A model generated the notes under the pieces. That model searched no databases and was not told the origin of the DNA. It worked only from the letters and a program-made list of their open reading frames with translations. A stretch of DNA of 6,359 bases from a virus (taxonomy: Duplodnaviria; Heunggongvirae; Uroviricota; Caudoviricetes): IMG/VR virus record IMGVR_UViG_2695420514_000020, positions 1 to 6,359 of that record; one strand, written 5' to 3'. Below are positions 3,233 through 6,359 of the stretch, piece by piece; the stretch's first letter is position 1; every line of letters starts with the position of its first letter. Both the position numbers and the translations under genes were made by a program.

Positions 3233-3397
3233 ATGAGAGGACTTGCATACAATCCCGGCATTCTTCCGGCAGAAATGATTATTCGCCAACGCGTAAAGCC
3301 AATGCCATCGAGAGAGGAATTGCTTAAGAGAAATTCTTTTCCATCAGTGAATCAAAACAAATATCTGAATGCGATGTTGCGGAGTGGGAAGAAATGA
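3233..3397 (+). CDS. hypothetical small protein (54 aa)
   Basis: ATG 3233 preceded by AAGAGGA (3219-3225) with a 7-nt spacer. Stop TGA 3395-3397 overlaps the next ATG (ATGA). Below the track cutoff. Confidence 0.45.
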
Positions 3398-3906
3398 AAC
3401 AAATGACACTAATTGAGATGGATGGTTTTCTGAAAGGTAAATGCATCCCAAGCGATTTAAAGGTTAACGAAACAAACGCTGAATATCTTGTCCGTAAGTT
3501 CGGTGAACTTGAATCAAAACTGGAAACGGCGTTGCGGGAGTGTCGTTCTGCTGGAATCACGATTGATAACCTTGAGGCTAAATGCACGAAGATGGCTGCT
3601 GAAAATACATCGCTTAAGCAATCTGAGAAGGAATTTAATGACTTTTGTCGTGAGGAGTTTAGCGAATGGGAAGATGATGTTACTGAAACTCCAGCCACCG
3701 ATGCTTTTCTGTCTGAAGTGCGGGCGCAGGGGGTGGATGCTGCTATAGAAGCTGCAAAAAATCTGGTGGCCCAAGAATATGAGTATAAGGATTTCAAAGC
3801 GGCGCAGAGTGATTGCTGTATGCACCCTGGTTCAGACCTGGTAGGGAAGGTTGAAATGACTGAGTGGTTAGTTGACTTTGCTGCCCAGCTTCGCAAAGGA
3901 GAGTGA
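3394..3906 (+). CDS. hypothetical coiled-coil protein (170 aa), possibly Ead/Ea22-like
   Basis: Long + strand ORF with a heptad-like charged helical middle ([44 protein letters not shown]). GGAG 3381-3384 upstream. The antisense ORFs across it are Ser-rich low-complexity shadows. Confidence 0.65.
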
Positions 3907-3907
3907 T

Positions 3908-4465
3908 ATGACCACTATAACCGATAAGAAACAGTATCCAGGCGAGCAATATCTTAATGAGCTGATCACCAACATAGAGTTTGCTGCAAGAGCACCAGTT
4001 GAAGTCGTGAGAGCGATGGCTGCAGAGCTACAGAAGCGGCGCGAAGCTGATAGTGCAGAACCTGTAAGCCAAACTTACAAGTTGCCAGTTAATACACCTT
4101 GCCAAGATGCGCCAGCCCATATCTGGCTGCAAACGGCTGGAGTATGGCCAGAAGATGGCGAGTTAAGCGAATTAACGTGGTGCAGCCACAATCAGCACCA
4201 TGATGACACGCTATATGTTCGAGCTGACCTTGTGAATGGCAACTCTCCGGGAACTCCGGATGGTTGGATAAGCTGTAGTGAGCGAATGCCAGAGGACGGT
4301 CAGCACGTAATTATTTTATGTGATGGCGCATTCGTTCTTTATGCGCAATATCGAGACGGTGAGTTTTTCGATATTGTCCGCAATGGTGATGAATTTTTTG
4401 AAACACAGAGCCGCAATGTAACACACTGGATGCCGCTACCAGAACCGCCGCAGGAGGCAAAATGA
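3908..4465 (+). CDS. DUF551-like domain phage protein (185 aa)
   Basis: ATG 3908 preceded by AAGGAG (3896-3901) with a 6-nt spacer; the track start at 3872 lies inside the upstream gene. The C-terminus DGWISCSERMPEDGQHVIIL...VTHWMPLPEPP matches the DUF551 signature as I recall it. Confidence 0.7.
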   Translation: MTTITDKKQYPGEQYLNELITNIEFAARAPVEVVRAMAAELQKRREADSAEPVSQTYKLPVNTPCQDAPAHIWLQTAGVWPEDGELSELTWCSHNQHHDDTLYVRADLVNGNSPGTPDGWISCSERMPEDGQHVIILCDGAFVLYAQYRDGEFFDIVRNGDEFFETQSRNVTHWMPLPEPPQEAK

Positions 4466-4659
4466 TGGATAAATGCCATGGCATTTTAGGTAAGTTGTTC
4501 GGGCACTCATTCAAGCCGGTGATCGCCAAGAGCGCCGTAAAATTCCCAACACGAATTGAAGGAACGCCGTCATTTGTCAGTAGAACGCTGGATGCCCATC
4601 GGGATGAAGATTATCGTGGCCTTTATTGCAAGCGTTGCGGAAAGGAGGTGAAGCCGTGA
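4462..4659 (+). CDS. small putative zinc-binding protein (65 aa)
   Basis: ATGATG at 4462 follows AGGAGG (4452-4457) and overlaps the upstream stop. N-terminal KCHG and C-terminal YCKRCGKE give a Cys/His...CxxC arrangement. Confidence 0.6.
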   Translation: MMDKCHGILGKLFGHSFKPVIAKSAVKFPTRIEGTPSFVSRTLDAHRDEDYRGLYCKRCGKEVKP

Positions 4660-4772
4660 TTACAGTGCTAGCATGGCATTTAAGTGAAAGCATTTATGGC
4701 TGGATGCTGGCAATTACAGCAATTCAGGATTTGGCAATCACATCGTTTATTTTCAGCCTGTGCAGGAGGTGA
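4656..4772 (+). CDS. small hydrophobic peptide (38 aa), putative membrane micro-protein
   Basis: GTG 4656 is 7 nt after AGGAGG (4643-4648) and overlaps the upstream stop (GTGA). Product MITVLAWHLSESIYGWMLAITAIQDLAITSFIFSLCRR; stop TGA 4770-4772. Not in the track (short). The track ORF 4684-5055 covers the same DNA in another frame. Confidence 0.4.
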   Translation: MITVLAWHLSESIYGWMLAITAIQDLAITSFIFSLCRR

Positions 4773-4776
4773 AGTG

Positions 4777-5055
4777 ATGGACTCCTTCGCGAAATATACG
4801 ATTATTGACTGGATAGCATTCCTTCAGGTTTTGCTCATCTGGTTTTATATGGCTTACAGGAGTGGGCAGTGGATTGTCAGTGTAGCCTGTAGCAAGGGAT
4901 GGCGTTGGTGGAACAGAAAGAATAAAAAAGCACTGGCATTGGATTCGTTTTACGAAGCATTCAATCTTAACAGTCTTCAGCCTGGTTCTGTCGTTGTAGT
5001 CACCACTCAAAGTGGCATGACCATTCAGATTCATAAACCAAAAGAGGAAAAATGA
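4777..5055 (+). CDS. small single-pass membrane protein (92 aa)
   Basis: ATG 4777 is 7 nt after AGGAGG (4764-4769). N-terminal hydrophobic segment YTIIDWIAFLQVLLIWFYMAY, then the basic Trp-rich stretch GWRWWNRKNKK. The track's upstream GTG 4684 start gives an implausible Cys/Trp-rich leader with no SD. Confidence 0.6.
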   Translation: MDSFAKYTIIDWIAFLQVLLIWFYMAYRSGQWIVSVACSKGWRWWNRKNKKALALDSFYEAFNLNSLQPGSVVVVTTQSGMTIQIHKPKEEK

Positions 5056-5141: not shown

Positions 5142-5174
5142 CAATCCTCGCACTCGCGGGGATTTCTTTTATCT

Positions 5175-5200
5175 GAACTCGCTACGGCGGGTTTTGTTTT
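5175..5200 (+). terminator. possible weak intrinsic terminator / attenuator
   Basis: Stem GAACTCGC (5175-5182) pairs with GCGGGTTT (5187-5194), including G-U wobbles, around the tetraloop TACG. It is followed by TTTTGTTTT. Marginal stability. Confidence 0.3.
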
Positions 5201-5212
5201 ATGGAGATGATT

Positions 5213-5512
5213 ATGACTTGTTCAACATTCAACCCTTTAACGTTACAGAAATACCATCCAGACCCTGAAGATTTATGCTCACTGTGTGGCGGAAATCATG
5301 GTAAAGCCGCCATGATCGAATGTAAGGACAAAATCCACATATGCCTTAATTGCGTTGATGTCCTCGTTGATATCAAAAATGAAAGAGAAGATAAAAAGCG
5401 TAGCGAGGCTATTCGCGCCTTAGATTCATGGATGCGAGATGGGTATAGTGCTGCGCAAATTTATGACTTAGCCATTTCAAAAGGCGAAATACCAGGTGTG
5501 CGAATCGAATAA
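5213..5512 (+). CDS. zinc-ribbon-containing hypothetical protein (99 aa)
   Basis: ATG 5213 is 5 nt after GGAGA (5203-5207); in-frame ATGs at 5201 and 5207 are alternatives. CSLCGG ... HICLNC gives a CxxC-x18-CxxC pattern. Confidence 0.65.
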   Translation: MTCSTFNPLTLQKYHPDPEDLCSLCGGNHGKAAMIECKDKIHICLNCVDVLVDIKNEREDKKRSEAIRALDSWMRDGYSAAQIYDLAISKGEIPGVRIE

Positions 5513-6167: not shown

Positions 6168-6359
6168 ATGAGCGATACTAGCCTGATTCCTGAGAAAGAA
6201 GTGATGAACAAGCTCGGTGTTTCATCACGTCAGACAATCTGGAACTATACCAAACGGCACGGATTTCCGAAGCCAGTCAGAACCCACCCCAAATCATACC
6301 TTCGTGAAGCTGTTGAAGGGTGGATTCTTAACGGTGGCGTTAATCAGAAATGCTCCTGA
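6168..6359 (+). CDS. AlpA/Xis-family HTH DNA-binding protein (63 aa); putative excisionase or integrase activator
   Basis: ATG 6168 is 7 nt after GGAG (6157-6160). Pattern IPEKEVMNKLGVSSRQTIWNYTKRHGFPKPV...EAVEGWI matches the AlpA/Xis-family arrangement (…EV…G.SR.TIY…G.FPKP…W) as I recall it. The window ends at its stop codon. Confidence 0.65.
   Translation: MSDTSLIPEKEVMNKLGVSSRQTIWNYTKRHGFPKPVRTHPKSYLREAVEGWILNGGVNQKCS

Follow-up and report, generated by a model that had tools for sequence, protein, structure and literature searches.

The 6,359-nucleotide stretch of viral DNA analysed here (the window) carries an ordinary small prophage gene of a widespread unnamed phage family. Its product of 64 amino acids is very likely a real, and probably metal-binding, member of this family, with the metal binding deduced from conservation. 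The gene lies between a DUF551 gene and a DUF4752 gene in the window, and its neighbours at other loci are varied.

The first ATG opens an ORF of 65 codons on the plus strand (4462-4659; MMDKCHGILGKLFGHSFKPVIAKSAVKFPTRIEGTPSFVSRTLDAHRDEDYRGLYCKRCGKEVKP in the list of ORFs). This is the protein of the preliminary description, and the ORF is present as described there, but a product of 64 residues that starts at the following ATG is more likely (4465-4659, plus strand; MDKC...EVKP, with the stop codon TGA at 4657-4659). The second ATG is the conserved start in at least 40 homologous loci, in which the preceding codon is GTG, TTG, ATA or GTA, and public gene calls in 31 collection blocks (24 contigs read) give exactly the 64-residue product. 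We therefore took 4465-4659 as the gene, whereas residue numbers are throughout those of the 65-residue ORF 4462-4659. Most likely the gene starts at ATG 4465, 7 nt downstream of the Shine-Dalgarno sequence AGGAGG (4452-4457, plus strand), which is located inside the last codons (PQEAK-stop) of the DUF551 gene. The stop codon of the DUF551 gene (TGA, 4463-4465, plus strand) overlaps both ATG 4462-4464, as ATGA, and ATG 4465-4467, as TGATG. The ATGATG that overlaps this stop and the AGGAGG upstream of it had been correctly recognized from the start. An overlap of stop and start of the TGATG or ATGA type is an arrangement typical of translational coupling.

Homologous loci repeat the GGAGG-N-TGATG junction seen at the start of the 64-residue gene. 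A second AGGAGG (4643-4648, plus strand) lies within the final codons of the gene itself (KEVKP-stop) and forms a junction linker of the same type as the one at the 5' end. The window contains 79 ORFs of at least 30 residues and four copies of AGGAGG, compared to 1.66 expected, and four copies are reached in 20 of 200 shuffles. Taken alone, neither the length of the ORF nor the AGGAGG count is significant. The GGAGG..TGATG junction, allowing up to three mismatches, is present in three copies within 330 nt (at 4453, 4644 and 4765); the expected number is 0.23, and not one of 200 shuffles attained three.

The window corresponds to the accessory region of early leftward genes in a P22-like/lambdoid E. 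coli prophage. Its genes are arranged in the order RecT (1522-2424), a Gp157/Gam-like gene (2402-2890), an Ea22-like coiled-coil gene (3394-3906), the DUF551 or P22 EaA-like gene, the 64-residue gene, the DUF4752 gene, several small ORFs and an excisionase (xis)-like ORF at 6168. The DUF551 gene (3908-4465, plus strand; Pfam DUF551, 3.7e-22) corresponds to a mechanically defined ORF of 3872-4465. Its start is probably ATG 3908, which follows AAGGAG, and the PHROG match begins at residue 13. The DUF4752 gene (4777-5055, plus strand; Pfam, 7.1e-36) probably starts at ATG 4777 after GGAGGTGAAGTG; in the long ORF the Pfam match begins at residue 39 and that to PHROG 667 at residue 32. A 38-residue ORF between the two (4656-4772) was dropped as a firm gene, and the region 4660-4776 looks like the remnant of a mosaic junction. 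Between 3800 and 5300 we found no promoter-like sites, and terminator-like hairpins only at 5143-5194. Because the stop and start codons overlap and no promoter-like site is found nearby, the 64-residue gene would be translationally coupled to the gene that precedes it and transcribed from the early leftward promoter, which would lie outside the window. Six loci encoding the identical protein (L044-L049) are prophages that carry N, cIII, kil, recombination genes, the 64-residue gene, xis and a lambda-type integrase. The integrase end of these prophages adjoins ybhC/ybhJ, and their ybhC flank shares 99.8% identity with E. coli. The DNA of the 64-residue ORF, on the other hand, was found in none of the 5,426 complete E. 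coli genomes searched, and the allele is therefore rare.

An initial search recovered only five close relatives of the 64-residue protein. By tblastn, ORFs that are 38-47% identical to it were detected in Enterobacter phage phiEap-2, where the ORF is unannotated, in Citrobacter phage Tr1 and in Klebsiella phage phi1_175008, which are unrelated virulent phages. A first profile (A1), built from early relatives including these virulent-phage homologues, retrieved 104 proteins in a word-indexed search, all of which are named 'hypothetical' and none of which has a Pfam domain. Their sources are Enterobacter, Klebsiella, Citrobacter, Cronobacter, E. coli, Yersinia and metagenomes, which bears out the early impression that the N-terminus resembles that of enterobacterial prophage proteins. 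When 1.84 billion cluster representatives were searched exhaustively with a profile, 873 clusters were recovered at E<=1e-3, of which 97 remained at E<=1e-10. The proteins in almost all of the 873 clusters are 60-110 residues long, and the few names other than 'hypothetical' found among the members are plainly automatic misannotations. Relatives are also present in nin-like regions and in virulent phages, and the distant members, too, sit in blocks of tiny early ORFs. Across the family 89% of the proteins have a net positive charge and 11% are not basic, with a median pI of 9.0; the 64-residue protein itself has a net charge of +6 and a pI of 9.55. Scanning the longer members for domain fusions gave nothing significant, and a GpA_ATPase match in one protein (P0222) covers the zinc region and looks spurious. 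A profile scan of genome contigs detected only two weak loci, both from Desulfococcus MAGs, which were left out of the analysis.

To describe conservation we used two alignments: A2, consisting of 96 sequences filtered from the 104-protein search, and A3, consisting of 135 unfiltered representatives of the exhaustive search. Left out of A2 were four truncated proteins and five of the 104 that carry substitutions (P0091, C5Y; P0059, H15R; P0092, H15Q; P0037, C59F; P0041, G14W), the latter mostly from clusters as small as 1-6 sequences. The signature of the family reads CxG[ILVF]xGx[ILF]FGHx[FY] ... [YF]xxxxCxRCG. Its N-terminal part contains Cys5 (codon TGC, 4474-4476, plus strand), the first proposed ligand, which is Cys in 95 of 96 sequences of A2 and 134 of 135 of A3, and, within LFGH, His15 (codon CAC, 4504-4506, plus strand), the second proposed ligand, which is conserved in 96 of 96 and 134 of 135, respectively. 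Gly7, Gly10, Phe13 and Gly14 are each conserved in more than 90% of both alignments. The C-terminal CKRC knuckle (4627-4638, plus strand) would provide ligands three and four, Cys56 (4627-4629) and Cys59 (4636-4638); these two residues, Arg58 between them and Gly60, which follows, are invariant (96/96 and 135/135). Pooling A2 and A3, Cys5 is found in 229 and His15 in 230 of 231 sequences, and Cys56 and Cys59 in all 231. Four candidate ligands are thus conserved family-wide, as expected for a zinc ribbon or treble clef. In a minority of members (P0129, P0137, P0156, P0220 and P0325) the N-terminus is shorter and the Cys and His are spaced as Cys-x5-His or Cys-x4-His rather than Cys-x9-His; both residues are nevertheless kept. 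Retention of the Cys and the His in spite of varied spacing fits roles as ligands better than roles in helix packing.

The metal site is therefore probably formed by Cys5, His15, Cys56 and Cys59, and the metal is presumably zinc. The preliminary description had assembled a Cys/His...CxxC site from the KCHG at the N-terminus and the CKRCGKE at the C-terminus, and had named a lack of conservation of these residues among homologues as the observation that would speak against it. Cys5 and the CxxC are kept in essentially all homologues, so that this check does not refute the proposal. The histidine of KCHG (His6, 4477-4479), however, is His in only 3 of the 96 sequences of A2, where Q, K, R, N or T is the usual residue, and its place in the site is taken by His15.

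None of the curated families in Pfam and NCBIfam reaches its threshold for the 64-residue protein, in agreement with the earlier failure to put a family name to it. The sole Pfam match is DUF1660 (PF07874), with 16.8 bits compared to a gathering threshold of 21.4 and an E-value of 0.01; it aligns residues 9-31 of the protein to positions 4-26 of the 63-position profile. Weak matches to DUF1660 are also seen in 12 of 96 members in A2 and 6 of 135 in A3. Two sequences bridge the families. P0104 just passes the DUF1660 threshold with 22.2 bits over its N-terminus, and P0325, with a precomputed PF07874 assignment, contains both motifs and is a match to the A3 profile (1.5e-8). Like the present family, DUF1660 comprises small phage or prophage proteins with C..(L/F)FGHx(F/Y/W) at the N-terminus and a CxRCG knuckle further along. 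In DUF1660, however, the knuckle lies near the FGH, at profile positions ~21-33, whereas in the present family about 40 residues, forming a strand, a helix and a strand, intervene. The spacing between Cys and His differs as well, being nine residues in the 64-residue protein and four in P0104 and P0325. The shared motifs and the two intermediates suggest that DUF1660 is a distant homologue, a sister branch, and that the 64-residue protein is not a member of it. A literature search retrieved nothing on DUF1660 or on the motif strings of the family.

Two further profiles match part of the protein. PHROG 30313, which is annotated without function, aligns over the N-terminus (E 1.6e-5; residues 1-21 to positions 1-21 of 43), so that the knuckle is outside the match, and is matched by 46 of the 96 members in A2. 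NCBIfam NF047912 (ECs_2282_CxxC), the ECs_2282 family putative zinc-binding protein of an E. coli O157 prophage, also describes a small CxxC protein of lambdoid prophages. The 64-residue protein scores 12.3 bits against its cut-off of 37, three other members score 14.5-15.3 bits, and the best E-value among the 96 is 0.002. The weak matches to NF047912, seen in 37 of the 96 over the C-terminal half, are confined to the helix-plus-knuckle segment, and the protein is not a member of that family either. PADLOC defence models gave no match at E<=0.01 for the 64-residue protein or nine of its neighbours. The family of the 64-residue protein is thus one of small zinc-ribbon-like phage proteins that is already sequenced but uncurated, and the 64-residue protein is a new member of it.

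With A2 as input, AlphaFold2 predicts an alpha/beta fold with a mean pLDDT of 89 and a pTM of 0.58. The predicted elements are a helix (7-13), a strand (17-23), a second helix (36-45), a strand (49-56) and a short final strand. In this secondary structure, from which the ligands of the metal-free model were placed, Cys5 and His15 flank the first helix and Cys56 and Cys59 lie in the turn after strand 49-56. A Foldseek search of the PDB found no neighbour (best E 2.9), and resemblance to a solved zinc ribbon or treble clef was not seen; the absence of structural neighbours may be an effect of the small size. A structure search of BFVD returned an unnamed homologue only. Matches of the profile to PDB sequences (an antibody CDR, the zinc site of RNA polymerase beta' and L37e) were chance-level matches to the knuckle and were discarded.

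Could the ORF have arisen by chance, or be a remnant between real genes? ORFs of such size commonly do arise by chance, its DNA is missing from the complete E. coli genomes mentioned above, and the homologue in phiEap-2 was left unannotated. However, compared to the 78%-identical homologues in two loci (L004 and L005; 83% nucleotide identity), the gene shows a dN/dS of 0.19-0.20 (dS ~0.58, dN ~0.11), which indicates that it is a genuine gene under purifying selection. It is the homologues and this selection, and not the ORF length or the AGGAGG, that raise the ORF above chance. Hundreds of homologous clusters with common invariant residues, a confidently predicted fold and the conserved Shine-Dalgarno sequence and start also stand against a chance origin, the probability of which we consider negligible: as far as computation can do so, the conservation data already refute it. 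No Rfam family was detected on either strand of the window, and the idea that the region is an RNA element was rejected on these grounds. We also found no support for the antisense ORFs.

A different question is whether the protein is a dedicated functional partner of DUF551/EaA, the two genes forming a module. This would fit the overlap of stop and start, and the preliminary description had called the gene coupled to the DUF551 gene and had proposed a survey of gene neighbourhoods to see if the two genes always travel together. Among the loci encoding the identical protein, a DUF551 gene is indeed called just upstream in five of six, with products of differing length (228-400 aa), and in the remaining one (L047) no gene is called at this position. 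Across the more distant loci the association does not hold. In a set of 44 loci, comprising 40 IMG/VR contigs, three phages and the window, DUF551 is directly upstream in only nine and thus not consistently adjacent, so that the company it keeps with the 64-residue gene is local only. The other 35 have a different upstream gene, among them genes for coiled-coil proteins, DUF3850, DUF7301, a methyltransferase and unnamed ORFs, and in the virulent phages phiEap-2, Tr1 and phi1_175008 the upstream ORFs are others as well. The downstream genes vary too and include a HolE-theta-like gene (5), NinB (3), DUF4752 (1) and a gene for an unnamed protein of 112 residues (~17). Homology, too, breaks at the gene boundary, the homologous blocks ending within 30-40 nt of the start: in blastn against L004 only 4432-4653 of the window aligns, and nucleotide homology to L046 begins at 4422. 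In the P22-like phage Gally, finally, EaA (DUF551) abuts the DUF4752 gene with no such ORF between them. The varied neighbours, the homology breakpoints and the gap in Gally show that the 64-residue gene is a single-gene mosaic cassette bounded by GGAGG..TGATG junctions. The mobile segment is 4432-4653 (strand not given), a homology block common to otherwise unrelated prophage contexts, and recombination at the short GGAGG...TGATG junctions on its two sides would carry it from one phage to another. Since most genes in the region are joined by the same overlap linker, and DUF551 genes are very common there anyway, the stop/start overlap is a general style of the region and no evidence for a specific partnership with DUF551, which we regard as quite unlikely.

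For the product, we propose an alpha/beta mini-protein of 64 residues whose fold would be held by one metal ion, presumably zinc, bound by Cys5 and His15 around the short N-terminal helix and by the Cys56-x-x-Cys59 knuckle, which separates the last two strands. It would act as an early, non-essential binder that modulates a host or phage macromolecule, either a nucleic acid or an acidic protein surface, and would thereby modulate early development or host physiology. We favour a binder because the protein is too small for catalysis, presumably non-essential, encoded among early genes and, in the family at large, usually basic. A precedent is provided by the small proteins encoded in the lambda exo-xis region, which are expressed early from pL, are non-essential and in some cases bind zinc (PMC8614690, PMC10834534), and whose mode of action is believed to be the binding of host regulators (PMC10834534, PMC8614690). 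Like the 64-residue protein they are encoded between the recombination genes and xis, and it is this placement, together with the basic charge and the invariant Arg58, that leads us to favour a zinc-stabilised binder. The likeness is one of position: to Orf73, a TraR-like C4 zinc protein, and Ea8.5, a homeodomain/zinc-finger hybrid (PDB 2M7A), we found no similarity in sequence or fold, and ligand set and secondary structure differ. Domain fusions or conserved partner genes that would point to a target were not found among the members. Macromolecule binding as the mechanism is accordingly put forward tentatively, at somewhat less than even chance, whereas the explanation as a whole, an accessory gene for a zinc-held mini-protein that travels as a cassette and binds a macromolecule, seems reasonably probable.

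A rival explanation is a zinc-finger regulator that recognizes specific DNA sequences and controls transcription of phage or host. The family is basic, the Arg in the knuckle is invariant, and there are weak generic matches to Zn_ribbon_13, the YgiT/MqsA finger and the TFIIB ribbon. These zinc-ribbon matches are far below threshold, however, and cover the CxxCG knuckle only. The protein has no helix-turn-helix or other known DNA-reading element, structure searches matched it to no DNA-binding zinc domain, and a lone domain of 64 residues is rarely sequence-specific, so that we judge such a regulator unlikely. Much less probable still is a TraR/DksA-like binder of the secondary channel of RNA polymerase, like lambda Orf73, with which the protein shares its genomic region and a similar size (PMC8614690). 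The GxxCxRCG bears a resemblance to the RNA polymerase beta' zinc site and to zinc knuckles, but a trivial one. Pfam zf-dskA_traR is matched by 1 of the 96 members (E 0.05) and not by the 64-residue protein; the ligands are Cys-His-Cys-Cys and not four Cys; an acidic DxxDxA helix at the N-terminus is absent from the sequence; the fold is predicted to be alpha/beta, in contrast to the extended helices of TraR; and there is no PDB match. A zinc-stabilised binder of a phage or host macromolecule remains our preferred reading. A bolder version of it, which we think possible but rather improbable, is that the at least 873 clusters represent a phage-specific CHCC zinc mini-domain with a fold absent from solved structures, whose members serve as early effectors that bind a particular host factor, for example a component of defence or of the stress response, and neutralise or redirect it. 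If true, this would explain the shuffling of the single gene across phages, temperate and virulent alike, with many different hosts.

Known roles of the small proteins from the lambdoid exo-xis/ea region are to tune the decision between lysis and lysogeny and the physiology of the host. Our analysis leaves the current understanding unchanged; its main results are that the ligand assignment is corrected and that the supposed link to DUF551 is removed. No curated model covers this large family, and no solved structure is a neighbour of its predicted fold, yet this is unsurprising in the accessory region of a phage. What is gained in practice is a family definition, consisting of the pattern CxG..G..FGHx[FY] ... 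[YF]....CxRCG, four ligands and a confident model, which could seed a Pfam/InterPro entry and offers a compact target for work on zinc binding and for finding partners. Within the 'dark matter' of the lambdoid exo-xis/ea region, the 64-residue gene is one further piece.

Copies of a short linker lie at three consecutive gene junctions of the window, at positions 4453-4467, 4644-4658 and 4765-4779, and have in common the consensus GGAGG(T/C)(G/A)AA..(G/A)TG(A)TG. Three matches with three or fewer mismatches were observed, compared to 0.23 expected, and none of the shuffles reached three. The linker encodes both a C-terminal tail of the '..QEVK*' type for the preceding gene and the SD of the following one. 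Moreover, the breakpoints of homology between one prophage and another coincide with the linkers, which therefore look like recombination joints of the mosaic.

We also analyzed the stretch that separates the gene of the putative zinc-binding protein from the DUF4752 gene, which itself starts at ATG 4777. It contains a hydrophobic ORF of 38 codons that starts at GTG 4656, where it overlaps the stop in the sequence GTGA, and ends at 4772; it also contains, from GTG 4684, a 31-codon N-terminal extension that is in frame with the DUF4752 ORF. Window positions 4643-4700 match positions 901-958 of locus L054 from E. coli ET826, where a DUF551 gene reaches its 3' end and another gene, encoding 116 aa, begins. 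Window 4660-4776 is probably a junction remnant and not a gene. Directly 3' of the DUF4752 gene, two tandem terminator-like hairpins on the plus strand (5143-5194), each followed by a T-run, are found within an operon that is expected to be pL-driven and antiterminated. The same operon encodes a second putative small zinc protein, a 103-aa protein (5201-5512) that is assigned to PHROG 3680 (E 3e-68) and contains CSLCGG...CLNC; its match to the ClpX-type C4 zinc finger is weak and under threshold (E 0.015).

In loci that encode the identical protein, the host flank is E. coli (ybhC is 99.8% identical) and the prophage sits at the lambda attachment site. A search of 5,426 complete RefSeq E. coli genomes with window 4440-4643 recovered no copy of the DNA of the studied ORF, and relatives of 42-45% identity, such as the family protein P0063, are annotated in this species. 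The allele studied here is rare in E. coli.

The best match in the search of cluster representatives, P0105, is a protein of 1407 aa with a signal peptide-like N-terminus and 20 repeats of approximately 50 residues each (..C.NPGVC..CG...YHW..C.(K/R)CG..), which align with the C-terminal half of the family profile only. The repeats probably represent unrelated zinc knuckles. N-terminal additions occur in the distant members P0154, P0204, P0256, P0260 and P0264, either as a hydrophobic, membrane anchor-like segment or as an extension of about 85 residues that includes a proline-rich linker. A scan of longer members that included P0154 and P0204 detected no Pfam domains.

Finally, about 17 of the 44 loci (within L006-L043; e.g., L016, 3194-3529) encode, 3' of the homologue, a 112-aa protein which is not present in the window and has no Pfam match. 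Its N-terminus is basic and its C-terminus Cys-rich, as seen in the pattern MAKSAAERKAAQRARQ...RRPGR.PYE..EYIALLIRQDD...CGKCGD.LPV.SCPC.GDS.CW. In most of these loci the start of its gene overlaps the stop of the homologue by 8 nt (ATGGCTAA), and in a few another gene lies between the two. The 112-aa protein may be a recurrent partner in Enterobacter and Klebsiella prophages.
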